The notes below the pieces were generated by a model, which saw only the letters and a list, made by a program, of their open reading frames with translations, made no database searches and had not been told where the DNA came from. This document shows, one piece after another, positions 1-22,147 of a DNA stretch of 64,000 nt. Numbering within the stretch: the stretch's first letter is position 1; each line of letters begins with the position of its first letter. The stretch comes from Candidatus Hydrogenedentes bacterium UBA6118 (GTDB taxonomy: Bacteria; Hydrogenedentota; Hydrogenedentia; Hydrogenedentales; SLHB01), in assembly GCA_002422525.1 (NCBI GenBank), contig DIWA01000063.1:9920-73919 (forward strand), written 5' to 3'. The position numbers were made by a program, and so were the translations under genes.

Positions 1-3000
1 TAGAAGCGGAGCTGCACCCGGTCGTCGAAGTTGCGGCCGAAGACCGTGAAGTACACCGAGTCCGCCGCACTCGGCGCCTCGCCCGCGGCCGGGTCGGCCG
101 CGCCTGCGTCGCTCGCCTCGCGCGAGACGAAGTTCGGGCGCACCTCCGTGATCACGGGCGGCCCGTCGGACACGTAGGTGTAGGCCAGCTCGTCCGGCAG
201 ATGGATCTCCAACACGTGGTCCGGGAACGCGGCGTCGTCGACGACAAGCGTCACGGGCACACGCCCGGCCAGGCCGCCGAGCGCCGGCGGCGTCACCACC
301 AGCAGCGATCCCGGCTCGCTGTCGCCCACGGGCACGTCCGGCGCGATATAGTCGAGGCCGTCGCGCGCCGTGTAGGTCTCGCCGATCTCCAGCACGCGGC
401 CCTCGACATCGCCGAACCGCACCGCCGGCAGCACGCCGCCGCGGTTGAACCCGGCGCCGTCAAGCTGCACCAGGTCGCCGCCGTCCACCACGCCGTAGCG
501 CGCGTCCGGCACGCCGGCCGCCGCCAGGTCCGCCCGGAACAGGTCCGTCACCTCCGGCGCCACGTAGCTCGGGACGAGCACGATCGCGCCCTCCAGCCGA
601 TGCGCCAACGGATTCCCGTCTTCATCCAGCGCCGGCTGGTGCGAACCGTCGTCGTGAAACACCTCAACGTCCAGCGGCACGTTGTGGTTGGCCGCCAGAC
701 CGAGGACCGGGTCCGGCTCGAGGTCCTGCACCACGAAGTCTATCCGCGACGGGGGCGACACGGCGTAGTCGGCCACGTGCGTGCCGCTCAACAGCGGCAC
801 CGCCGTCTCCGTGCCCGTGTCGTCCTGCGCCCAGACGCGCACCCGCGTGCCGTCCTCGAGAAGCTGGTACAACTGCACCGCATCCACCACCGTGCCGAAG
901 TTCGACGGGTAGTATTCGTCCGGATGCGCGAGTCGGATGGTCGTATTCGGATCCGTCGCCGTGAAGGCCATCGACCGGATCGTCCAGCGCATGTTATTGG
1001 GCAAAGTCCTCCCGGACGGTCGCGCGAACTCAACCGTCTGACCGCCGCCGGCGCTCGCATACGCGATCACGCGGCCGAAGCGCGCGTCCGTCACGTTCAA
1101 TTCGGGATGGACGCCGTGGGCGAACACCAGCTCGTAGCGGCCGCCGGGCGTCGTCGCCACGGACTGCTCGACCGAACCCACGTCATCGTAGCGCGGTATC
1201 AGGTGGACAAAGCGGTCCCCATCGTATGCCGGCGCGTCGTCCGCGACGACGTACTGGATGCCGTCCAAGCCGATGTCCCAGCCGGGCAACGCCGTGGATC
1301 CGGGCGGGAGCTCGGTCGTCGTCGCGGGCCCGTCCTCGAAGCTCGCGTTGTCCAGGGGTTCCGGGACGCGTACGAGCGACGATCCCGGCGGGATGAAGTC
1401 GGACCCGAGCAGGGTCACATCGATGCCGCCGTTCAGCGGGATCAGGCGCGGCGACACGGACCACAGCCGCGGCGGCGCAAGGACGTCGTCCGCATCCGTC
1501 CGCGGGACCCAAATCGCGCCCTCGCTCACCCAGTAGGCCGGCTCACCGCTCTGGTTATACGTCGATTCCTCGGGCAAGAGGAGCAGGACGTCCAGCGTGC
1601 CGAACTTGCCGGACGGCAGCGCCTGCGAGACGTTGAAGTAGACATCCGACTCGCCGATCCACGGCGCCGGGCCCACTTGCGTGATCTCCTCCGGATCAAC
1701 CTCATGCCCCCCGACAAACAGGCGCATATCCGTTGTGCCGAGCCAGTTCCGCACGCGCATGCGGTATTCGAAGTCCTGGTACGCGGCCGGCGTGCCTCCC
1801 GGAACCGTCGCGTCGCGGTGCACGCCCGCGATCGAGTCGACCTGCAAGATCTCGAAGTAGAGCGACTCGCCGGACTGAATGGTCTGGTTCGCCGGCCGGT
1901 TGGCCGCGTAGATCATCGCCGCCGAGACGGTCTTGACGTCGCCCGCGGCGTCGGTCGGGTTCCCCTCGACATCGAGCGCGTTGCGGACCTCCACCTCGAG
2001 GATGCGCGGCTCCGTCCCGAACACGTTCGAGAAGCCGGGGCCGTAGTCGCCCGGAAGCAGCGGAACGTCCAGGTCGATGCCCCGCTGCGTGTGGCCGCGA
2101 TGCTCCTCCACGACCTCCGTCGGCATCACGATGCCGTCGCCCGCCGCATCGACGATCTTCTCCCCGCCGGACGCCGGCTGGCGGAACGTGATCGCGAGGC
2201 CCGTGTCGAACCCGGCGCCCAGCAGCGTGCGCGGTTGCGGATCCGGCGCGACAGGGTAGACCGTAGTCCCGATGGTTACGAAGTTCGACGGCCGCCACAC
2301 CGCCGCGACGTCGAGCAGCTCGCCGCCGGCGCCGACCAGACGCCCTCCATCGAGCCCGGGCGCGCTGTCCGCGTAATAGGTGAACCCGTTGGCCAGCACG
2401 TCACGCTCGCCGTCGTAGTTGATCACTTCCACGTCGTAGGCGCCTGCCGCGCCGAACTCGGCGACCGGAATCACGACGTCGCGAATCTCGTCATAGGAGT
2501 CGCCGGCGGGGTTATCGGGTCCCTGGCGCAGCTCGGCGTAGGGGCAGACGATCCCGCCGATCTTGACGATCACCGGATGGGGTTCGCCCCCGTCAAAGGC
2601 GCCCGGGCCGATGTTCCAGCCCACGATGTCCGCCGTGAACGCGCGGTCCGCCGGATCCGCCTCCGGGTCCGCGTCGCCGGGCGTACCGCCCAGATCGCGG
2701 TAGTAGTTGGGCGAGATCTCGACCACGTCCAGCCGCGGCCCCTCGGTCGGGTCGACGTATTGATACTCCTTGAGCGGTCCCGCGGGACTGGTCGCCGACG
2801 GCGGGCCGGGGTTCACCACGAGCACGTCGATCTTGTCGGTGGGCGTCGTGCGGACCGGGGCCTGCACATACAGCTTACTGGACGACAGCCAGAGCACGCG
2901 ACCGCTCTCCTCATCGGGATCGGGCGCTTCGTCGCCGTTGAAATCGAAGTAGACCCGCGCGTCGCGCTCGAACCCGGATCCGATGATCGTGGTCCAGTTG

Positions 3001-4484
3001 CCGCCGCGCTGTTCGGGGTCGATCACATCGGTGTCCGTCCAAACCGGTCCCGTTTCCGGGATCGCCGCCGCCACCTGCGGCACGGTCGACGCGGATCCGG
3101 TGTACGTGAAACCGAGCGGAACCATGAACGCCAGACCGTCGTCGCGGATCAGATGCACGTTAACCGGGCCGGGCTTCGCCAGGTAAGACGCCGGCGCGGT
3201 CACCTCGATCATGTCGACCGTGCTGTTCGCCGCATTCACGGTCGCGGCCGTCTCCGCCCGCGAAGTGGGCCCGAAAAAGACGCGCACGGCGCCGACCGCC
3301 GCGTCATTGGTCGCGAGGTTGTTCCCGTGGATCCGCACCACGGTCGGCACGTTGTAGATCCCGTTGTCGGGCTCGAGGACGATCTCCTCGTCCGCCCACA
3401 CCAGACCGCCTTCCTCCGCGAACGGCGGGGCATCATCATCGGCGGGCTCGGCCGGATCGCGGCCGTCGCCGTTCCCGTAGACGATGGTGTTGCGCACGCG
3501 CGCGTTGGCGCCCGTCTCCACGTAGACGCCGTAGTCCTGGTTCAGCAGCACCGTACAGAAGAGAATGTCGGTGAACAGCCCGGCATCCGGATCCGCCGGC
3601 GTCTGGACCCACACGCCCGCCTTGCTCGAATACTGCTTGTCCAGCCAGCGCTCCATCCAGGGAGGCGTCTCGTCGTCCTCGCCGAGGCCGAAGTCCTCCG
3701 GCAAGGCGTTGCTGTAGCCGCCGATCACGCAGTTCACCAGCAACGGCGCCGCGTTGCCTTCCACCAGCACGCCCGCGCTGGCGCCGCCGGGCAGCATCAG
3801 CGCCTGCGACGCCCCGAGGATGATGCATCGGCTCAGCGTGGGTCGGATCGCGGGCTCGCCTTCCTCGCTGCCCTGGATCCGCACCCGGTACGGCCCGTTG
3901 CGGATCGTCAGCCCTTCGATGAGCACGTTGCTCAGTCGTTCCTCGAACGTCGCCGCGCTGTCCTCGGCGCCGGGGGTATAGCGGTAGTACATCCACGGGT
4001 CGGAGGCGCCGTCAGGCGCGCGCTCCGTATGGATCTCAAACACGCCGCTGCTGTCGTCGACCCCGCCGCCGTCCACGGTCACCATCCACGGGCGCCCCAC
4101 GGCGCGCTCGTCCTCCTGATCGTCAGGCGTCAGGCCGATCACATGGATGTTCGCGTCGCCGGGGATGCGGATCGGAGCCGTCTCCGTGTACTCGCCCTGC
4201 TCCACCCACACCGCCACGCGCTCGCCCGTCTGATAGGCTTCCTCGAGCGCCATCTCGACGCCCTCGCGAACCGTGGCGGCGTCCGCGGCGGCATTGTCAT
4301 CGCTCACGACAACCGTGTTCGGGGGAATGACCGGCGGCAACTGGGCCGCGGCGAACGGACTGAACGCGCAAAGCAACGCGGCCAGCGCCGAAACGGTCGC
4401 GAACGCGCCGCGGCGGGACGCGGCACGCTCCACGCTGAGATGGCGCCCTCCGGTCCTGAATCGTTCCCAGAGTCGATGCCGCAT
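1..4484 (-). CDS. Giant secreted protein (>1494 aa, runs off the left edge): N-terminal right-handed parallel beta-helix-like region, multiple IPT/TIG-like repeats, and a DUF642/choice-of-anchor-C-like domain
   Basis: Not in the ORF track because there is no stop inside the window. Translated by hand from ATG at 4484 (AGGAG 9 nt upstream; alternative in-frame ATG at 4493): MRHRLWERF...SRRGAFATVSALAALLCAFSPFAAA|QLPP. Beta-helix-like rungs include SNVLIEGLTIRNG, PTLSRCIILG, PLLVNCVIG, YGVYV and VRNTIVYGN. Seven IPT/TIG-like G-x-x-F/L motifs (VVRIHGNNL, WTTIIGSGF, TADIVGWNI, RTLLGAGF, DVTLLGSDF, LVQLDGAGF, YFTVFGRNF). NASFEDG...GWDIG...VEQSVATTPGGRYELVF...MRWT..AFTAT..TTIRL...VDAV lies at ~862-1349. 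The frame read open wherever checked, down to base 3. Confidence 0.85.
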   Translation of the reverse strand, partial: MRHRLWERFRTGGRHLSVERAASRRGAFATVSALAALLCAFSPFAAAQLPPVIPPNTVVVSDDNAAADAATVREGVEMALEEAYQTGERVAVWVEQGEYTETAPIRIPGDANIHVIGLTPDDQEDERAVGRPWMVTVDGGGVDDSSGVFEIHTERAPDGASDPWMYYRYTPGAEDSAATFEERLSNVLIEGLTIRNGPYRVRIQGSEEGEPAIRPTLSRCIILGASQALMLPGGASAGVLVEGNAAPLLVNCVIGGYSNALPEDFGLGEDDETPPWMERWLDKQYSSKAGVWVQTPADPDAGLFTDILFCTVLLNQDYGVYVETGANARVRNTIVYGNGDGRDPAEPADDDAPPFAEEGGLVWADEEIVLEPDNGIYNVPTVVRIHGNNLATNDAAVGAVRVFFGPTSRAETAATVNAANSTVDMIEVTAPASYLAKPGPVNVHLIRDDGLAFMVPLGFTYTGSASTVPQVAAAIPETGPVWTDTDVIDPEQRGGNWTTIIGSGFERDARVYFDFNGDEAPDPDEESGRVLWLSSSKLYVQAPVRTTPTDKIDVLVVNPGPPSATSPAGPLKEYQYVDPTEGPRLDVVEISPNYYRDLGGTPGDADPEADPADRAFTADIVGWNIGPGAFDGGEPHPVIVKIGGIVCPYAELRQGPDNPAGDSYDEIRDVVIPVAEFGAAGAYDVEVINYDGERDVLANGFTYYADSAPGLDGGRLVGAGGELLDVAAVWRPSNFVTIGTTVYPVAPDPQPRTLLGAGFDTGLAITFRQPASGGEKIVDAAGDGIVMPTEVVEEHRGHTQRGIDLDVPLLPGDYGPGFSNVFGTEPRILEVEVRNALDVEGNPTDAAGDVKTVSAAMIYAANRPANQTIQSGESLYFEILQVDSIAGVHRDATVPGGTPAAYQDFEYRMRVRNWLGTTDMRLFVGGHEVDPEEITQVGPAPWIGESDVYFNVSQALPSGKFGTLDVLLLLPEESTYNQSGEPAYWVSEGAIWVPRTDADDVLAPPRLWSVSPRLIPLNGGIDVTLLGSDFIPPGSSLVRVPEPLDNASFEDGPATTTELPPGSTALPGWDIGLDGIQYVVADDAPAYDGDRFVHLIPRYDDVGSVEQSVATTPGGRYELVFAHGVHPELNVTDARFGRVIAYASAGGGQTVEFARPSGRTLPNNMRWTIRSMAFTATDPNTTIRLAHPDEYYPSNFGTVVDAVQLYQLLEDGTRVRVWAQDDTGTETAVPLLSGTHVADYAVSPPSRIDFVVQDLEPDPVLGLAANHNVPLDVEVFHDDGSHQPALDEDGNPLAHRLEGAIVLVPSYVAPEVTDLFRADLAAAGVPDARYGVVDGGDLVQLDGAGFNRGGVLPAVRFGDVEGRVLEIGETYTARDGLDYIAPDVPVGDSEPGSLLVVTPPALGGLAGRVPVTLVVDDAAFPDHVLEIHLPDELAYTYVSDGPPVITEVRPNFVSREASDAGAADPAAGEAPSAADSVYFTVFGRNFDDRVQLRF

Positions 4485-4647
4485 ATCGTTCATCTCCTGT
4501 CCCGCTCAGCCCCGATGCGCGCGGGTTGTGTATCCGTATGTCCGCCCCGCCGTCTCCCGCTCCGCGGGAAGGCATCGGGCGGCCCGGCGTCTATGTTGCG
4601 GGCGAGCCGCGACGCGCAGCGACTGCACGGGCCCGCCGCCTCGCCAT

Positions 4648-7600
4648 CTATCGCTCGTAGACCGTCCGGATCTTCTTCTCGCCCGTCACGACGAAGCGGT
4701 TGCGCCAGTCCACCACCCGGACCGGCGTCCCCGCCGCGTCCTCGACATCCAGCACGGCGTCGTTCGTCACATAGCCGGACTGACCCAGCACGATCACCTC
4801 GAAAACGTCCGAATGCGTCGTGACCAGGTTCGACAACCGCGTGAACCGCTGGATCTTCTCGTCATACACGATGGGCGCCATCGGGTCGGTCTCGTCGGGC
4901 CACTCCGTCGGCTCGACCCAGTCCACCGGCCACAGGTGACTCAACCGGCCCGTGCGGAGGATGAAGGTCGGATCGACCAGCGGCTCGGTCGGGTCGGCGG
5001 CCAAGGCCCCGAGACCGCGCGTCAGCAGCTCGGCCGCGTTGCGGTAGTATCGGCCGTCGTAATGCGCCGGCGCGGAGCTCTCGATGCCGGCGGCCACCCC
5101 CTGCGCGTCCACATAGAACGCCTCGGACGGACTGATGCCGTCGAGTTCGCCGGGAAAACTCAGGACCAGTCGCGGCGGGTCGCCGACTTCATCGACCACC
5201 GTCCGCGCACGCATCAGCGCGCCCGGCGCGCCGACCAACGGGTTCAGCGGCTTCGTGCCGCCATCGTAGTCCAGGATGGCCGTGGCCGCCGTGTTGACGT
5301 TGACCTTGCCCGGCGTGCGTCGGCTCGACGTCAGGATCACCCGCGAGAACCGGTTCAGCCGGCCGCCCTGCGCCCAGTTCCGCAGCAGCAGCGCGAGGTA
5401 GTTGTTCTCAACCGTCACCTGACCGTAGTAGACCAGCCCCTCGGTGGACGGCTCCGGCGCCACCTGAAGCCCGAACGACTCCTGCGGCGCGAGCGGATCG
5501 CCCGTGATGCCGCGGTTCATCAGCGCCGGCGCGGGCGCGTCCGCACCCGACCAGCACCGACGGTTGCCGTCGCGGTCCGTGAAGAACTCGACCGTGATGC
5601 CCATCTCTTCGGGACGCACCCGCTGTTCGATCAGCGTCTTCGGGTCGAACCGGTCGTCATGCGCCGCGGCCGTGGCGAACAGATCGCCCACGCGATCCGC
5701 GTCGATCCCCGCCAGCCGCTCGTACACGTCATCCAGCCGGCTCAGGTCGTCCATCGTCACCACGTAGACGTCGTAGGCCCCGTTCTCGAGCCCGTCGTCG
5801 CCGTCCCACACGAACAACGCCTCGGCCGGGGGCATGTCGTCCGGCATGCTCCACAGATCGACGTCGTTCGGATCCACATACGAGCCGTCCTCCTGCGTGG
5901 GCTGGAAGTCCTGCGGGTTCATCGACACGTACATCACCGTGCGCCGCAACAGCGACCACCGCGCGCGCAAGGCCGCGTAGTAGTCCGTCACCCCGCCCGG
6001 CGTCGTCGGATAGCCCGGTGGGAGCAACCGCGGCGAGTCATAGGGGTCGGCGGGGGGATCCCGTTCGAGCCGCGGACGGAACAGGAAGTTGAGCTGCACC
6101 GGCACGTCCATCGCCGCGGTCGGGTCGACCTCCGCCAACGGCTGCACCGAGCCCATCGCGTACGTGTCCTCCAGCCCCGGATCCGTCACAAGCGGGTCGT
6201 CGGGCAAGGGGAACAGGAAGATCGGCGTCCACGCGCGCGGCCGCACGTTCGGGTCGCCCGGCGTGGTCACGTCGTACCACTCGATGAACTCGGTGTACTC
6301 CGCTTCGGTGTATGCGGCGGGGTCCGGCCACAGCGGGTAGAAGTCCGCCTGCCCCGCCGTCAGGGTCAGCGTCGCGTGCGTACCCGATTCGATCAGCTTC
6401 TCGAGCTCGCGCACCGAGTCGTCCACGCCCGCATCGAACAGCACGCCGTTGCGACCCATCAGCACCTTGTCCAGCCGCTCGACGGCCGCCGCGTCGGCGC
6501 CGAGAAGCGCCGTCATGCCGAACTGGTGCAACGTCGCGAGCTGGCCCGGCGTCGTATACGGCCGGTTGCGCACGTTCGCGCGCGGATGTTGCCACGCCAG
6601 CACGTCGTTCTCGATGCGCGTCGCCGTGATGTCCCCGGTCTCCACCGTGCGGTGGAGGAAGTTCATCCGGCCCGGCGTGCCCGACAGGCCATGGGTCAGG
6701 TCCGCCCGGATAACGTCGGCGTCGACGGGGTCGGGCTGGTACCAGACGCCGTCGCCGAAGTAGAACGGCCCTTGCCCGCCGTCCCACTCGTCATAGGCGC
6801 CGTCGGTCGCCTCCCACCGGTTCGTCGTGCCGGCGAGGTCGCCGTGGTACAGCGGGTGCTTGCGCTCGAGCGACCGATAGAAGTCGATCCCCATCGTGTT
6901 TTCAGGCCACATGCGCAGATTCGCCGGATCCAGCGCCGCCTCGCCGTTCTCGTTCACGTAGGGGCAGATCACGCCGTCGTCCAGCGCCCGGTTCTCGACA
7001 TCGAGCTGGGTGTAGGTGACCCGGTCAACGACGCGCGCCTCCGACTGCGGCCCTTCGTACAACGTCACGAACACCGCATCCCCTGGGAAGAACCGCCGCT
7101 CGATGAACCGCTTCCAGTCCGGCGGATCCGCGGCGCCGCCGAGGTAGTCGCCGCTGAGCACTTCGAGGTCGTCGAGCTCGGTACGGAACGCATGGTTGAC
7201 CGGATCAGGGTGATAGGCGCCCGGCACGGCCACGGGCACGCCCGCCCGGCGCGCTTCGAGCAGGTATCGGCCTTCGTCGACCCCTTCGTAGGCCTCGTCG
7301 ACGCCCAGGTTGTCGAAATCCGGGTTGCCGGCGGCGCCAAGATACTCGAACGCGCCGCTGAACTGGTCATAGCGCAGGTACGACGTCCCGGAGTTGTCCA
7401 CGCCGTCGTTGCTCAGCACCGAGTTGTCCAGGTCATTGTCTTCCCAGTCCTCCTCGGGCGCGTTCGGGAACACCCCGCCGTCGAGCACGACGCGCGCGAG
7501 CTGTGCGAGCCGCGCGGAGGGGTTCGTGCCGAGCCGATCGAGCGAGATCTCGCTGAGCTGCACGATCCGGTCCCACGGCTTGCGCGCCTCGGACCCGAAC

Positions 7601-10600
7601 GCCGGTTCGAGGTCCGGTCCGGGGTAGTTCGCCGGCCAGTCGTTCGCCGTCGACTGGATCCGCCACTCCACCGGGAACGGCTCGATGATCTGCTCCAGGT
7701 CTGGGTCGAACCGGAAGTCGTCATTGATGGCGTAGTCCACGCCGCCGACGTTCACAACCACTGGAACGCCGGAGTTGCCCAGCAGCGCATCGCCATCGGC
7801 GTCGAGGAAGTCGACCCACTCGTTCACGCTCGCCAGGCCGGTTTCGGCATCGTGCAGCGGCAGCGCCAACGGCGTCCGGAAGAAGATGCTGTCCCCAAGC
7901 GGCCGGTTGATCAGCAATGGGTCGTCGGCCACGCGGAACGGTCGCACCGGCGGGAATGGGGGCACGGTGATCTGCGCGGCCCGCGTGCCGGCGACGCCGA
8001 ACATGGGGAACATGGCATCGTCATCGGTCGCGGCCAGGCCGATGCCGTTCCTGCGCAGCACGCTCAGCGCCGAGAAGTCGCCGTCGGCCGATGTGCTCTG
8101 GTTGAACTTGTCCGCCCCGACATCGAACTTCGTGACCGCGAGGATCAGCGAACCGCCGGGGGCGATCCGCGTGCCCTCGGGCACGGTGAACAGGCGGTGG
8201 TGGCGCTGGGTCGCCGTGCGGCCCACCTGCAGCCGCCAGTCCGACATGTCGATGTACTGGTCCTCGATCGGGCGCACGGGATCGACCGCGGCGACGTTCA
8301 CCACCTCGACCCACTCGTGGTCCGGCTCCTGGCTGAACTCAAAGTAGTTCACGACGAGGTCATCGTTGAGCGGATCGCCGGTGGTGTATTGGGGATCATC
8401 GCTCTTCCAGACTCCGAGATACAGGTACTCCTGGTCCGCCGGATCCGCCGCATACTCCGGAATCACCACCGTGTACGCGTAGAACTCGTCGCGGTTGCCG
8501 TAGGGCGCCAACCGCCCGTCCAGCGTCGGGTCGGGCTCGGGCAGGGACGGCAGGAACACCATGCCGGTCTCGCGTTGGGCGCCGTCGACGTCAGGCCGCG
8601 TGCCGATGATCGGTCCGTCGCCCGCGTCGCCCTTGTGCACCACATTGCCCGCTTCCATCATCGGCTCATAGTCGTAGCCGACGTCGGGCAGGACGTCCTG
8701 GAAGGCGCCGCCGCCGAGGAAGTCCAGGTAGTTGATCTCGGACCCCGTCACGAACCCCACGGCGTCGCTCAGGATATCTTCGTCCGCCTGGCCGTACTTG
8801 ATCACGTAGTTCAGCTTGTTCTCCTGGCCTTGCAGCATCGTCGTCGTGGCGGCGTCGCCGTTGCGCGTCACGTTGGCCAGCAGATAGTAGCGTCCCGGAG
8901 GCAGACCCGGTCCCGGACCGAACCGGAACTGGATCATGTTCGGCGTCTCGTGCCACTCGTCGCCGAACGCCAGCGGCGTGGGCGGCGGCGCCGCGATCGC
9001 GACCGTCGTCGCGGAGACGTCGTTGATCACGTTATCCGCATCCACGAAGCGCGAGGAGAAGCTGACGTACGATCCCGCGCCCAGGTGATAGGCCTTCGGG
9101 TCGCTGGCATCCTCGCCAGGCATGTAGCGTCGACCGGCGACGGCGATGGAAGGCGCCGCGGGCACGCCGTAGCTCGATCCGGGAGGGAGGGGATCGAGAC
9201 CCGTGTCATTCACCCACACGGGCCGCCCGTCCCAAAGGCTCCGCGCCGGGTCGATGGGCACGGTGTAGTTGTCGAAGGTGTGCAGGTTGCTGGGCCCGTT
9301 GCCCGCCGCGACGATCCGGTCGCGCGGCAACGTCGCCTGCGTCATGTCGAAGTCCAGCTTGCCGTAGTCGTCGACGAACTCCTGCGGCGTGAAGTAGTTC
9401 GGGTTGAACTGCTCGGCGAGGCGATCCTCGAGGATCTCGCCGCCGGGCACGTAGGCCCACCGAAAGAGCTGCGGATCCGGCGGCGCGAGCGTGTTGTACA
9501 TCTCCGCCTCGATCCGGCGGACGGGGCGCGCCATGATCTCGTTGATGCGGATGCTCTCGATGCCCGCGCTGGTGTAGTTGATGCGCCGGTTGACGCCGAG
9601 GCCGACGTCCGCGGCCCAATCATCGCCGGTCGACGACGTCAGCGTGGTCCGCGCGGCGTCCGGGTCGCGGTTGTCGGTGATGTTGACGGCGGTCTGCTGG
9701 ACCCGCAGGACCGGGTCGATCTCGAACGACGTCGGCCCGGACGGCCCGAGCAGCGGCGCGGTCGCGTCGGACTCGAACCGGACGCCTTCGACCCGCAGCC
9801 CCTGAGCGAACCGTTCCGCCGCGGTCAGGGCCGGGTCGGACGCGAACCGCGGCCGATAGCCGAGATCGTTGATGGTCGCCGTGGCGATCTGCGACGGCGT
9901 CGCGAGGTTGTAGTTCAGCTTCAGCCCCGACAACGCCGGCGCGTCGCCTTCAAGATTGTAGCGATAGTTGCGGTCCGCCGAATGCACCGTCAACTCATTG
10001 CGGTTGCGGCTGAACGTGGTCCCGCCGATGCCCGTTACGAGCTTGATCTGTTCGCGCGTGTAGTACTGATGGTCGCCCAGTTCGCCCAGTTCGTCGGTCT
10101 TCGTGTCGCCGAACGGCGCATCGTTGTTCACCCCGTCGCCTTCCGCGACCAAGTTGCGATGCGGCCGGAACTGACGCTGCTCTTCCGGCGCGTCGATGCC
10201 CTCGAACTGCCCCAGCAAGTACTGGTAGCGATCGTCGTAGCCGTCGTCGACATACTCCGAGAACTGGATACCCAGCAGACCATCATCAAGGTCGTGCAGA
10301 AGCTCCCCGGTGTAGGGGTCAATCAGGTACAGACGACCCTTGTCGAAATCGATCTCGCCGTCGCCGTCGAGATCGCCCGCCTTGGGCAGCGCGAACCCTT
10401 CGTCGATCAGGCCGTCGCCGTCGTTGTCGATGCCGTCGTAAGCCATCCAGAACGCGTCGCCGTCGTCATCGACGCGGCCGTACCCCGGCAGGTTCGCGTC
10501 GTAGACATACGGAACGGCCTCGACAGCCGCCAGCCGGTCGTCGTCCGGATAGAAGTAGTCGCCGCCGGTCTGCACGCCGGGCTCGGTTGGGAACGTGCGC

Positions 10601-20281: not shown

Positions 20282-22147
20282 CTAGTCTGCGGCGGCCCGA
20301 TCGCCGCCCTGTTTCAGCGGTTCATCCTGATGGGTGACCCGCAACACTTCTTCCAGGGTGGTGACGCCTCGGGTCGCCTTGAGCCAAGCGTCCTCGCGCA
20401 GCGTGTGCATGCCTTCTTTGCGCGCCGCGCGGCGGAGCCGCGCCGAAGAGGCGCCCTGCATGATGAGCGTACGCACAGTGTCCGTCGTCATCATCAGCTC
20501 ATACACGCCCTGCCGCCCCTGATAGCCCGTTCCCGTGCAGTTCTCACAGCCCTTGCCGTAGAACAACTCCACTTCGTCTGGGTTCACAGGGAAACCGAGT
20601 CGCTCGAGCGACTCCTGATCCGGTTGGATAGGCGCCTTGCAGGTGGTGCACAGCGTGCGCACGAGGCGCTGCGCCAGCACCACGCGCACGCCCGAAGCCA
20701 CCAGGAATGGCTTCATGCCGATATCCACCAGGCGGATGAATGCGCTGGGCGCGTCGTTCGTGTGGAGCGTACTGAACACCAAGTGGCCTGTCAGCGCCGC
20801 ACGCACGGCGATCTCCGCCGTCTCCTGGTCACGAATCTCACCGACCATCACGATGTCGGGGTCGACGCGGAAGATGGCGCGGAGCGCACGCGCGAAATCC
20901 CAGCCGATCTCATGCTGGATCTGCACCTGGTTGATGCCGTCCATCATGTACTCGACCGGGTCCTCGATGGTGATCAGCTTGTTCTTGACCGTGTTGAGCT
21001 TGTGAAGCGAAGCGTAGAGGGTGGTCGTCTTGCCCGAACCCGTGGGCCCGGTCACCAGCATCACGCCCGAACCCTGCCCAAGCAGGCCCTCCCACTTCTT
21101 CTGGTCGTCCGGGTTGAACCCGAGCTGCCCCAAACCGAGCGTCAGGCCGCTCTTGTCCAGGATACGCATGACGATCGTCTCGCCGTACACGGAAGGAAGG
21201 CAGCTCACGCGCAGGTCGAGCATCTTGCCGCCGATGGTGATCTTGATACGTCCGTCCTGCGTCACCCGGCGTTCGGCGATGTCCATCCCGGCCATGATCT
21301 TGAGTCGCGAAATGATCGACGGCTGCGCCCGTTTCGGCGGTCGCGGCATCAGATGCAGCACGCCGTCGATCCGGTACCGCACCTTGAGGTCGTACTTCCC
21401 GGGCTCGACGTGAATATCACTCGCGCGCAGCCGGAACGCCTCGGTAATCAGGTTGTGCACATAGCGCACCACCGGACTGTTCGCGTCGTCCCCGTCGTCA
21501 TCGAGGTTGCCGCCCCCGCTCCCTACCGACTCCTCGTCAAAGTCGACGCTGTCTACGCTGATGCTGCTCATGCTGATGTCGCCCGCCGACATGCTCGAGG
21601 CATCCAGCGAACTCACATTGGACATCGTGCTCAGCGTGCTCATCGAGCTGGCGCTGCTCACGGTCGACAGCATGGACTCGACGGTCTGCTCCCCCACACC
21701 GTAGTACCGCTGCAATGCCGATCGGACATCTTCCTCGCTCGCGAGGCTCGGTTCGATCCGCGCATCCAACAGCCGCTCCAGGTTGTCGATGTTGTTGATG
21801 TTCGTGGGGTCCGACATCGCCAACGAGATCGTGTTGCCGTCTTTGCCGAGAGGAATCACACGGTACAACGTCGCAATGTTGGGGTCGACGAGATTTCGGA
21901 CGCGCTCGGGGATCTCGCGCTCCGACAGATTGACCACGGGAATCCCCAACTGATCGGCCAGACCCTCCGTGATGTGGCTCTTGCTGATGTAGCCCATCCG
22001 AACGAGGATCTCGCCGAGCTTCCGGTGGGTCATCGACGATTGCTGCCGATGTATCGCTTCGTCGAGCTGCTGCTGAGAGATGATATTGCGCTCGACGAGC
22101 CGCTGCCCGAAGAGGCTGTAAGTCTGCTGCTGCTGCACGTCTAGCAC
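20282..22147 (-). CDS. pilB: PilB/GspE-family assembly ATPase 1 with MshEN-type N-domain and Ser/Met-rich linker
   Basis: KLGEILVRMGYI; RASDIHVEP; GPTGSGKTTT; FRVDPDIVMVGEIRD; TGHLVFSTLHTND; LCTTC...GCENC. GTG start with AAGGGG RBS. Confidence 0.93.
   Translation of the reverse strand: MLDVQQQQTYSLFGQRLVERNIISQQQLDEAIHRQQSSMTHRKLGEILVRMGYISKSHITEGLADQLGIPVVNLSEREIPERVRNLVDPNIATLYRVIPLGKDGNTISLAMSDPTNINNIDNLERLLDARIEPSLASEEDVRSALQRYYGVGEQTVESMLSTVSSASSMSTLSTMSNVSSLDASSMSAGDISMSSISVDSVDFDEESVGSGGGNLDDDGDDANSPVVRYVHNLITEAFRLRASDIHVEPGKYDLKVRYRIDGVLHLMPRPPKRAQPSIISRLKIMAGMDIAERRVTQDGRIKITIGGKMLDLRVSCLPSVYGETIVMRILDKSGLTLGLGQLGFNPDDQKKWEGLLGQGSGVMLVTGPTGSGKTTTLYASLHKLNTVKNKLITIEDPVEYMMDGINQVQIQHEIGWDFARALRAIFRVDPDIVMVGEIRDQETAEIAVRAALTGHLVFSTLHTNDAPSAFIRLVDIGMKPFLVASGVRVVLAQRLVRTLCTTCKAPIQPDQESLERLGFPVNPDEVELFYGKGCENCTGTGYQGRQGVYELMMTTDTVRTLIMQGASSARLRRAARKEGMHTLREDAWLKATRGVTTLEEVLRVTHQDEPLKQGGDRAAAD

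Follow-up and report, generated by a model that had tools for sequence, protein, structure and literature searches.

The GspK/PilX-class subunits at the tips of pili and pseudopili are regarded as filament-nucleating proteins of about 300 amino acids (aa), with adhesins, PilY1 for example, being proteins of their own. The concept of the modular pilin has been set out together with the insertion of the GspK alpha-domain in the pilin sheet, and modular pilins reached at most 860 aa in a 2021 InterPro survey (PMC8179133). GspK homologues are apical and invariably lack Glu5, the GspK C-terminal strand is supplied in cis, and in CpaL and ComZ the pilin domain is followed by modules and then by the terminal strand (PMC13533445). 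The gene described here is at 4648..11994 on the minus strand of the window, which is the whole 64,000-nucleotide stretch of DNA that was analysed, and from its ORF, motifs and codon composition it is read as encoding a giant minor pilin of the GspK/PilX family with 2448 aa. Its best explanation, which we consider probable, is that a Hydrogenedentota bacterium uses the product as the apical minor pilin, of the GspK/PilK/PilX class, in a type IV filament machine.

The closest described system is GspK/XcpX (PDB 3CI0 chain K, 5VTM chain X; NF037980; PF21687 + PF03934), with which the giant shares the absence of Glu5, an NLN hairpin and a gene placed after G, H, I and J, and probably a helix-hairpin-helix alpha-domain inserted into the pilin sheet and an 'S-D-x-F' strand and a terminal strand at the C-terminus, all elements being colinear by hhalign. 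It departs from GspK in being about 7.5 times longer (2448 versus ~330 aa), in an alpha-domain that appears to hold a nested lamin-tail domain (LTD) and jelly rolls, in more insertions after alpha1 and near the C-terminus, in HMM scores far under the family cut-off, and in an operon that has PilT, with PilM in orthologous loci, and so is pilus-like and not T2SS-like. PilB/PilC of S. sanguinis, ComZ of T. thermophilus and CpaL of C. crescentus are similar in using a pilin module as the carrier of a functional module at the tip, but they have ~450-860 aa with one or a few modules, whereas the giant has ~2100 aa of nested modules on a GspK-type scaffold; relative to modular pilins sensu Raynaud et al. 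2021 (PMC8179133), its modules are inserted and not appended. PilY1/PilC of type IVa pili offers a likeness in a large, probably Ca2+-dependent tip adhesin function, a retractile pilus and a minor-pilin operon. However, PilY1 does not belong to the pilins, bears a beta-propeller at its C-terminus and gives its terminal strand to PilK/PilX in trans, whereas the giant would join adhesin-like mass and K pilin in one polypeptide. Pfam and NCBIfam scans gave the giant no PilY1 or Neisseria PilC family match, and membership among the PilY1/PilC tip adhesins was rejected on the missing beta-propeller match and the presence of a pilin N-terminus.

The gene and its relatives

The ORF is intact, with an ATG start and 2448 codons plus a stop, and specifies a precursor of 269.9 kDa with a pI of 4.27 and 11% Asp. 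Its minus frame has GC3 0.90 and GC2 0.44, the same pattern as in the neighbouring real genes. Rejected as shadow frames were an Arg-rich plus-strand ORF at 4273-12312, longer than the giant ORF itself, a plus-strand ORF at 201-4823, and a 134-aa minus-strand ORF at 11978-12382.

An exhaustive search puts the giant in a family of 321 representative clusters. The family has at least ~100 clusters of 1900-3431 aa in Hydrogenedentota and forms of 830-1080 aa in Omnitrophota. Among the 165 family sequences examined, 97 have at least 1900 aa, the longest being 3431 aa. Thirty full-length homologues on independent contigs (1746-2914 aa, identity 28-89%) align to the giant over its whole length; the relative P0001 is 89% identical. 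A profile search of genome contigs with the family alignment A1, which was saturated by the promiscuous DxDxDG pattern, confirmed 3 loci, one in a Hydrogenedentota MAG and 2 in MAGs labelled Nitrospirales. The compact Omnitrophota relatives (830-1080 aa; P0150, P0166, P0182) contain an LTD and carry PF03934 and PF21687, and NCBI (for some of them) and JGI name them GspK/PulK. They have the architecture and landmarks of the giant, and an operon slot that follows a T2SSJ pilin and precedes PilM and secretin, but are 2-3 times smaller, the giant having ~1500 extra residues over at least 8 loops. In the literature on GspK or pilins with lamin-tail domains and on Hydrogenedentes and Omnitrophota pilins, we found no description of either the giant or the compact family. 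The compact 'GspK' proteins are known from pipeline annotation alone, and the giant is several-fold bigger than the pilus subunits described in the literature found.

The sequence-only reading had taken the 2448-aa ORF for a PilX/GspK-like pilin, and had named an assembly chimera as one way in which its interpretation could fail. The sole support for an artefact, be it chimeric assembly, gene fusion or a pseudogene in decay, is the unusual length and the lack of Pfam matches over most of the protein. On the other side are a frame without interruption, GC3 of the coding type, and colinear full-length homologues on dozens of independent contigs, some of 0.2-2 Mb, with neighbours identical in kind. 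Homologues and synteny refute the artefact, to which we give practically no credence, and the ORF stands as a real gene.

The GspK-type core

All coordinates from here on are window positions on the minus strand. The first segment, aa 1-100 (11695..11994), has a prepilin-type leader, a hydrophobic alpha1 helix and a conserved TSLDHAWRTYFNGAW element, as indicated by the GspK HMM, PilX_N and hhalign. The N-terminus reads MRLRTETRG|AALLIAVSVLAILLAL, and the residue at +5 after the Gly of RG|AALLI is Ile and not Glu, as the sequence-only reading had noticed in describing a prepilin N-terminus that lacks Glu5. The same holds in the family, where +5 is I, V, M, L or T, and Glu in none of the 84 giants with a recognisable N-terminus. 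The lack of Glu at +5 in a prepilin-type N-terminus whose alpha1 is hydrophobic is one mark of the GspK superfamily. The segment matches positions 2-78 of the NCBIfam T2SS_GspK profile with E = 1.7e-8, and Pfam PilX_N with E = 2.9e-4, which is under the curated cut-off.

The reference profile for GspK was made from 48 classical GspK sequences and has 346 positions. By hhalign, giant aa 1-100 + 352-470 + 596-813 match GspK positions 14-219 with 98.2% probability, in an alignment that begins with aa 1-100 at position 14 and pairs aa 596-813 with positions 123-219. The C-terminal part of the giant matches positions 245-299 with a modest 86% over 55 columns, and the compact family covers positions 220-300 with 98.1%. 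The compact core as a whole aligns with positions 14-300 of 346 (99.8%, E = 5e-28), and the giant core aligns with the compact Omnitrophota core end to end (100%, E = 5e-59), the compact family thus forming a bridge between the giant and GspK. Since the hhalign E-values against the GspK profile run from 1e-13 to 1e-28, the resemblance is far above chance at the level of profiles. The compact-family profile falls on the giant in 10 colinear pieces; 2 more weak pieces, with scores of about 0 or below, fall out of order in Asp-rich loops.

Single family models give the giant much less. The NCBIfam equivalog NF037980 scores 34.4 bits on the whole protein and at most 46.5 on spliced versions, against a cut-off of 130, and Pfam finds no T2SSK domain directly in the giant; we count both against the apical-pilin reading. 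The sequence-only reading had proposed GspK, PilX_N and Verru_Chthon cassette protein A HMMs, and of these GspK and PilX_N did match at the N-terminus, in each case under the cut-off. Verru_Chthon cassette protein A (TIGR02600, ~1300 aa) is like the giant in its size, GspK-like N-terminus and pilin-like cassette partners, but only profile positions 1-63 match, at 24.6-30 bits versus the required 332, and membership was rejected.

Passing along the core, aa 352-535 (10390..10941) contain, by HMM and hhalign, the beta-hairpin with the GspK 'D-E-x-x-K/R-x-N-L-N' motif, here DEASRVNLNTA at aa 378, along with a helical module (aa 430-465), a conserved PGYG...DGIDNDGDGLIDEG loop, and a weak EF-hand-like Pfam match (E = 0.025). 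An NLN beta-hairpin after alpha1 is another mark of the GspK superfamily, and hhalign gives it 98.1-98.7%. When aa 101-354 are removed in silico, the GspK HMM match grows from positions 2-78 to 2-110/123 and its score from 39 to 46.5 bits. The probable counterpart of the GspK alpha-domain is aa 590-805 (9580..10227), found by hhalign to GspK and by ComEA/HHH_3 matches, with a helix-hairpin-helix at aa 640-672 (YYTREQIKLVTGIG), the element LKLNYNLATPSQIA and an NITDNRDPD motif. Near the other end, aa 2223-2372 (4879..5328) form a helix-hairpin-helix module with GKVNVNTA at aa 2229, a DGRYY motif and lineage-specific loops. By hhalign and by way of the compact relatives, this module would correspond to the first part of Pfam T2SSK (PF03934): the GKVNVNTA-type motif of compact relative P0146 matches PF03934 with 28.4 bits versus a cut-off of 24.2, and the motif in the compact relatives matches XcpX 5vtm_X residues 171-202. 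The last segment, aa 2373-2448 (4651..4878), includes TTHSDVFEVIVLGQ at aa 2392 and has a C-terminal helix, a TTHSDVFEVIV strand and the terminal strand EKKIRTVYER, seen in hhalign and in predicted strands with pLDDT 74-90; the family consensus at the C-terminus is R[TVAS][VI]YER. These are likely the C-terminal strands of the pilin sheet, with EKKIRTVYER as a cis-donated terminal beta-strand.

The landmarks DEASRVNLNTA, NRPYTTPGQL, GKVNVNTA and TTHSDVFEVIVLGQ had all been picked out in the sequence-only reading, and all are present. One of them, NRPYTTPGQL at aa 1810, had been taken as GspK-like and has to be given up as such, because hhalign locates the GspK 'N-x-P...EL' motif at aa 640-672. 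The element is family-specific, and by profile alignment belongs to a conserved helical linker, 'RNRPYTTPGQL', behind the LTD (aa 1781-1859; 6418..6654).

The AlphaFold model of the 824-aa relative P0150 has pLDDT 92 and pTM 0.85, with a beta-hairpin at aa 101-120 and a terminal hairpin at aa 797-823 flanking the inserted domains. Foldseek matches this model to 3ci0_K (GspK) with probability 1.0 and E = 9.5e-5, and to CBM6/35/36 with probability 1.0. For the giant, a core made by splicing aa 1-100 + 352-535 + 590-813 + 1795-2448 gave a mediocre model with pLDDT 66 and pTM 0.73, for which Foldseek returned no significant match and no GspK in the top 50. A PDB search with the whole giant sequence gave only 2kzw_A at chance level (E = 0.25), and a PDB profile search with family alignment A1 gave no match. 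Colinear profile homology at both ends, compact relatives annotated as GspK in which the landmarks recur, the confident GspK-like model of one of them, and the K slot of the gene nevertheless support placing the giant in the GspK/PilK/PilX superfamily as a member expanded by about 7-7.5 times. This sustains the earlier view of a GspK/PilX-type subunit with its fold elements spread over 2448 aa and about 2000 aa inserted.

Inserted modules

Judging from the alignments, ~2000-2100 aa are inserted within a ~330-residue GspK fold. Insertion A (aa 101-351; 10942..11694) is rich in Asp and has loops of the DxDxDG type at aa 189 and aa 215; it has no equivalent in classical GspK and no Pfam match, and its deletion in silico extends the GspK HMM match. 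An alignment of homologues shows a lineage-specific insertion at aa 536-589 (10228..10389) that is restricted to the giant and P0001. The largest inserted block, about aa 704-2228, is within the alpha-domain and includes a putative interrupted LTD and CBM6/35-like jelly rolls. The LTD (aa 806-1780; 6655..9579) appears from spliced Pfam searches, hhalign and the HMM map to be split by nested insertions into pieces at about aa 806-836, 1213-1296, 1628-1668 and 1695-1780, with a weakly jelly-roll-like insert at aa 832-1212 and an Asp-rich one at aa 1297-1627. The intact giant has no Pfam LTD (PF00932) match, although PF00932 is a precomputed annotation on many homologues. The spliced LTD matches the Pfam family with E = 5.8e-4 and 20.6 bits (cut-off 34.3) over profile positions 22-108 across the 1296/1628 junction, and matches the compact-family LTD by hhalign with 99.8% and E = 7e-28.

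An expanded beta-sandwich, putatively a CBM6/35-like jelly roll with the motif FVWDGDDGLENGAYDVYVVT, was assigned by hhalign and the HMM map to aa 1860-2222 (5329..6417). It aligns to compact-family module 2 with 97.8%, over 44 columns only; Foldseek matches to CBM6 were weak on the chimeric, spliced-core model of the giant, and those to CBM6/35 were strong on the P0150 model. Pfam searches on each inserted segment gave a weak EF-hand-like match only, most segments being without a recognisable family. Rather than one built-in adhesin, the added sequence comprises many nested insertions, namely an apparently twice-split LTD, jelly rolls and Asp-rich loops. A modular pilin is a pilin module with at least one non-pilin module, and the GspK-type core with LTD and CBM-like modules fits that description.

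The operon

Directly upstream of the giant are 4 prepilin genes, each with Glu5 (12243..15941), identified by N_methyl/TIGR02532, by best family matches and by reading their N-termini. They are GspG-like (269 aa, 15132-15941), GspH-like (347 aa, 14089-15132), GspI/PilV-like (176 aa, 13557-14087) and GspJ-like (432 aa, 12243-13541), so that the giant occupies the K slot behind pilins in the order G-H-I-J, the gene position of the GspK superfamily. Orthologous loci L001 and L004 likewise have 4 Glu5 pilins upstream. The compact K loci have a T2SSJ-family gene directly upstream, as in L005, where this gene carries Pfam T2SSJ, and secretins downstream. Family matches identify motor and platform genes at 16023..22147, consisting of PilC/GspF (16023-17291), PilB/GspE (17305-19044), PilT (19115-20269; 479 bits to the PilT family, cut-off 319) and a second PilB/GspE (20282-22147); both PilB-type proteins have an MshE-type c-di-GMP-binding N-domain. 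The gene downstream of the giant (1..4493) runs off the window edge and encodes at least 1497 aa with a Sec signal and TIG and DUF642 domains, and its position is kept in orthologous loci.

Orthologous operons additionally encode PilM (PilM_2) and a TPR-secretin. No GspC was detected, and the sole GspL/M-type signal is a weak T2SSM match in the upstream-edge gene of L001 and L002. A T2SS would have GspC/L/M and no retraction ATPase. With the retraction ATPase PilT in its operon, the host machine seems closer to a type IVa pilus than to a type II secretion system.

Proposed role

The GspK-homologous segments occur in GspK order, as alpha1, NLN beta-hairpin, helix-hairpin-helix elements of the alpha-domain, and C-terminal strands. 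In the apical minor pilin that we favor, prepilin peptidase would cleave after Gly9, and the N- and C-terminal segments would come together as one pilin domain as in GspK, with the conserved strand EKKIRTVYER donated in cis. By docking on the I/J-like pilins, the core would nucleate filament assembly, which would leave the protein at the tip. The nested beta-sandwich modules and acidic loops, which probably bind Ca2+, would form a very large tip head that may bind polysaccharide or a cell-surface ligand, and PilT-driven retraction would pull on the material bound. For the giant itself, we infer that it acts as an adhesin, that its leader is cleaved and that its core reassembles in three dimensions.

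The size of 270 kDa counts against a tip subunit where it has to pass a secretin. The sequence-only reading had raised this puzzle, and it is a real one because orthologous operons encode a secretin. The same difficulty favors a giant that caps a short periplasmic pseudopilus and stays in the cell, its head serving in a type II secretion-like manner, either as piston or plug or as an adaptor for cargo that drives the adjacent large secreted beta-helix/TIG protein through the secretin. GspK homology and the T2SS-typical G-H-I-J-K gene order also suit this arrangement, as do the large Sec-signal protein that is always encoded directly downstream and the giant proteins reported beside T2SS-like loci in Omnitrophota (bioRxiv 10.1101/2023.11.21.568195). 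A bona fide PilT in the operon and PilM_2 fit pili better, however, GspC and all but one weak T2SSM match for GspL/M are missing, and CBM- and LTD-type modules make most sense extracellularly, so we regard a pseudopilus as unlikely, while keeping it in view. We think still less of a surface adhesin, anchored in the membrane or released, that uses the pilin-like N-terminus as an export and anchor signal and does not polymerise. The great size of the giant, its acidity and its wealth of binding-type modules speak for this, and Verru_Chthon cassette protein A sets the example of an annotated family of large proteins with a GspK-like N-terminus, the match being N-terminal only. But members from 824 aa up to 3400 aa all conserve the C-terminal strands and the NLN hairpin, which argues for selection on a complete pilin core and not on a signal alone, and the gene keeps strictly to its position behind the I/J-like pilins; such an adhesin is improbable.

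RTX proteins fold outside the cell upon Ca2+ binding. By analogy, in the apical minor pilin a tip too large to cross the secretin folded might have its Asp-rich insertions (pI 4.27, DxDxDG loops) unfolded or extended in the periplasm, to fold outside when Ca2+ is bound. We offer this as a speculation, with the odds well against it. If true, type IV filaments would export and assemble their tip in a way that is new, and an uncultured phylum would capture prey or polymer with a 270-kDa grappling head that assembles itself on the pilus, possibly in company with the adjacent giant secreted protein.

Significance

Domain-based annotation overlooks such proteins, the giant being missed because Pfam gives only a sub-threshold PilX_N on the intact protein. 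The findings indicate that more than 2000 aa of binding-type modules can be nested in a GspK scaffold that keeps both ends of the pilin fold, which would stretch the modular-pilin idea about threefold in size. With members of 824 to 3431 aa, the family is a natural size series in which to ask what load of cargo a tip complex and secretin tolerate. It also provides a concrete candidate for how uncultured bacteria may attach to polymers or to other cells.

The giant gene and its family

The giant gene, window:4648-11994(-), is an ORF of 2448 codons with an acidic product (269.9 kDa, pI 4.27, Asp 11%), read in a minus frame with GC3 of 0.90 and GC2 of 0.44, much as in every neighbouring gene. The 30 homologues that were found span 1746-2914 aa and 28-89% identity, those with a named source coming from Candidatus Hydrogenedentes MAGs. 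An exhaustive HMMER search, with the spliced N- and C-terminal parts of the giant as query, gave 321 representative clusters; among 165 family sequences, 97 reach 1900 aa or more and 66 reach 2400 aa or more, up to a maximum of 3431 aa. The alignment to the 30 homologues covers the whole length, with invariant residues spread from D77 to D2418, which excludes a pseudogene and also the assembly chimera that the sequence-only reading had raised as a doubt. Two full-length relatives, at loci L007 and L008 from a profile scan of genome contigs, are on MAG contigs labelled 'uncultured Nitrospirales', the L007 member matching query residues 1-2447 at 29% identity. Either the family extends past Hydrogenedentota, or the bins are mislabelled or contaminated.

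G+C across the window is 62-73%, so that long shadow ORFs arise. Those at 4273-12312(+), 201-4823(+) and 11978-12382(-) are very long and lie opposite or overlapping true genes, one of them, at 2679 aa, exceeding the true gene in length. They are a high-GC artefact; the first, which overlaps the giant gene, was rejected as a real gene, its translation being Arg-rich nonsense. Such ORFs could misdirect annotation based on ORFs.

Relationship to GspK

The giant begins MRLRTETRG|AALLIAVSVLAILLAL, which bears out the claimed prepilin-type N-terminus lacking Glu5; at +5 it has Ile. In all 84 giants whose N-terminus is recognisable, this residue is I, V, M, L or T and in none Glu, and the C-terminus of most giants reads R[TVAS][VI]YER. 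Direct family scans match only the first ~80 residues: NCBIfam T2SS_GspK at positions 2-78 (E = 1.7e-8; score 34 bits, cut-off 130), Pfam PilX_N (E = 2.9e-4), and Verru_Chthon cassette A over profile positions 1-63. When aa 101-354 are removed in silico, the GspK match reaches profile positions 110-123 and the score rises to 46.5 bits, so DEASRVNLNTA is the GspK NLN motif, shifted by an insertion.

Compact full-length relatives, also found by the exhaustive search, carry the giant's landmarks in unchanged order, as in the 824-aa P0150. A search with P0150 leads to Candidatus Omnitrophota proteins of 830-1080 aa, several labelled 'general secretion pathway protein GspK' or 'PulK' by NCBI or JGI, with precomputed Pfam lamin-tail domain (LTD), HHH_3 and T2SSK matches, and T2SSK_1st in one. 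The profile of this compact family matches residues 171-202 of XcpX (5vtm_X), ComEA helix-hairpin-helix motifs at 'riNINTAs', and the giant in ten colinear pieces, aa 5-87 through aa 2378-2448, plus two weak pieces at Asp-rich loops that are out of order.

Against an alignment of 48 non-redundant GspK proteins of the classical type, hhalign places the compact core (P0150 aa 1-262 + 716-824) on positions 14-300 of 346 (99.8%, E = 5e-28), and the compact C-terminal part alone on positions 220-300, which run from iNvNTA as far as the 'S-x-y-F' strand (98.1%, 6.6e-14). The giant core aligns with the compact core over 515 columns (100%, 5e-59). Giant aa 1-100 + 352-470 + 596-813 match GspK positions 14-219 (98.2%, 3.7e-14) and the C-terminal part of the giant matches positions 245-299 (86%, 4.7e-6); the giant therefore carries both halves of GspK, one at each end and in the right order. 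All four motifs quoted in the sequence-only reading are found, at aa 378, 1810, 2229 and 2392. Their assignment as GspK landmarks stands for DEASRVNLNTA and fails for NRPYTTPGQL (aa 1810), since hhalign places the GspK 'N-x-P...s-EL-x-v-G' motif at giant aa 640-672 (YYTREQIKLVTGIG); NRPYTTPGQL is a family-specific element C-terminal to the LTD.

Structure models and inserted domains

The AlphaFold model of P0150, made with 33 homologues, has a pLDDT of 92 and a pTM of 0.85. In it, an alpha1 helix of 64 residues leads to a beta-hairpin at aa 101-120 and to helices at aa 142-245. A beta-rich block at aa 253-560, the LTD with an embedded sandwich, comes next, and then the second sandwich at aa 609-721. 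Helix-hairpin-helix helices at aa 731-787 and a terminal beta-hairpin at aa 797-823 complete the model. Foldseek against the PDB finds ETEC GspK 3ci0_K (probability 1.0, E = 9.5e-5; target-normalised TM 0.42 over 226 columns), along with jelly rolls of CBM6/35/36, also at probability 1.0 (TM about 0.5-0.6). The spliced giant core (1162 aa) models at a pLDDT of only 66 and a pTM of 0.73, with alpha1, the NLN hairpin and terminal strands at a pLDDT of 74-90, and Foldseek with this model gave no significant match. In GspK, the pilin sheet contains the alpha-domain as an insertion (PMC8179133), and the protein provides its C-terminal strand in cis (PMC13533445); by homology, the N-terminal hairpin of the giant probably pairs with its C-terminal strands.

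Relative to the compact family, the giant has additional residues at eight or more sites. Its predicted LTD lies in pieces (aa 806-836, 1213-1296, 1628-1668 and 1695-1780) that, when spliced, gain a Pfam LTD match spanning the 1296/1628 junction (E = 5.8e-4) and match the compact LTD at 99.8%. The two compact sandwiches are paralogous (98.8%). Giant aa 1860-2222 match the second at 97.8%, confined to its last strands, and aa 832-1212 match the first weakly (60%). The insertions at aa 101-351 and 1297-1627 have no Pfam family match, and their common ground is Asp-rich loop motifs only. The architecture appears nested, the GspK alpha-domain holding the LTD and the LTD holding further inserts.

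The operon

Directly upstream are four prepilins in G-, H-, I-, J-like order, all with Glu5 (mature N-termini FTLIE, FTLVE, FSPIE and FTLSE). Classical GspG/H/I/J are roughly 120-200 aa. All four at window:12243-15941(-) are considered much larger, at 269, 347, 176 and 432 aa as called, the starts of the 347- and 432-aa ORFs being uncertain because long leaders precede the G|FTL site. It seems that the whole tip complex, beyond K alone, is expanded in this lineage. The 248-nt gap between the J-like pilin and the giant (window:11995-12242) is non-coding, and neither it nor the ~154-nt gap downstream of the giant gave a sigma-70-like promoter or a minus-strand terminator when scanned.

Ahead of the prepilins are PilC/GspF, two PilB/GspE-type ATPases and, between these two, an ATPase of the PilT family that scores 479 bits (cut-off 319). 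The PilB/GspE-type pair, 579 and 621 aa (window:17305-22147(-)), are paralogous, and both have an MshE-type c-di-GMP-binding N-domain. This gene order is repeated around orthologues (37-38% identity) at loci L001/L002 and L004, the E-T-E ATPase arrangement being kept in L001 and L004. The Omnitrophota compact K has a T2SSJ-family pilin upstream and PilM/N with a TPR-secretin downstream. Operon content thus indicates a type IV filament system of the diderm kind that has a retraction ATPase and resembles a type IVa pilus more closely than a classical T2SS.

The slot directly downstream of the giant is the one that PilY1 holds in type IVa minor-pilin operons. In the orthologous loci, this slot encodes a large secreted protein: in L001 one of 2342 aa carrying TIG, in L004 one of 1013 aa carrying Beta_helix. 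L004 goes on to a PEGA/FGE-sulfatase protein and PilM_2 and, after two small genes, to a TPR-secretin. Here window:1-4493(-) encodes at least 1497 aa, a lower bound as the gene is cut at the window edge; the product has TIG and DUF642 domains and a signal peptide of Sec type (…AFSPFAAA|QLPP). The downstream secreted protein could be a tip partner or cargo.

Immediately upstream of the pilus operon is a Cus-type heavy-metal efflux set (window:22683-31062(-)) of an outer-membrane factor, a 1329-aa RND pump and a membrane-fusion protein that carries heavy-metal-binding domains, adjoined by a TRASH/YHS metal-binding protein; it is not conserved beside the orthologous operons and has no relation to the giant. 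Beyond it, a 1330-aa protein (window:31710-35702(-)) matches only an alpha-amylase catalytic domain (aa 473-834).

Proposed mechanism and comparison with known pilins

The results show the family, architecture and operon position of the giant. In the mechanism that we propose, the leader would be cleaved after Gly9, the two ends would form one pilin domain with the terminal strand donated in cis, and the giant would join the I/J-like pilins in nucleating the tip complex and be located apically. Its head, putatively stabilised by Ca2+, might bind a polysaccharide or cell-surface ligand, and retraction by PilT would then pull on the ligand-bound head.

Known examples of modular pilins and of pilin-like tip adhesins include S. 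sanguinis PilB and PilC, ComZ, and CpaL (PMC8179133, PMC13533445). The longest modular pilin in the 2021 InterPro survey is 860 aa (PMC8179133) and CpaL has about 600 residues (PMC13533445), against 2448 aa here. In Omnitrophota, giant genes beside T2SS-like loci have been reported, though not as pilins (bioRxiv 10.1101/2023.11.21.568195). The ~1000-aa LTD-bearing 'GspK' proteins are annotated by pipelines, and a literature search found no paper on them or on the giants. We regard the giant as a new and extreme form of an already known type.
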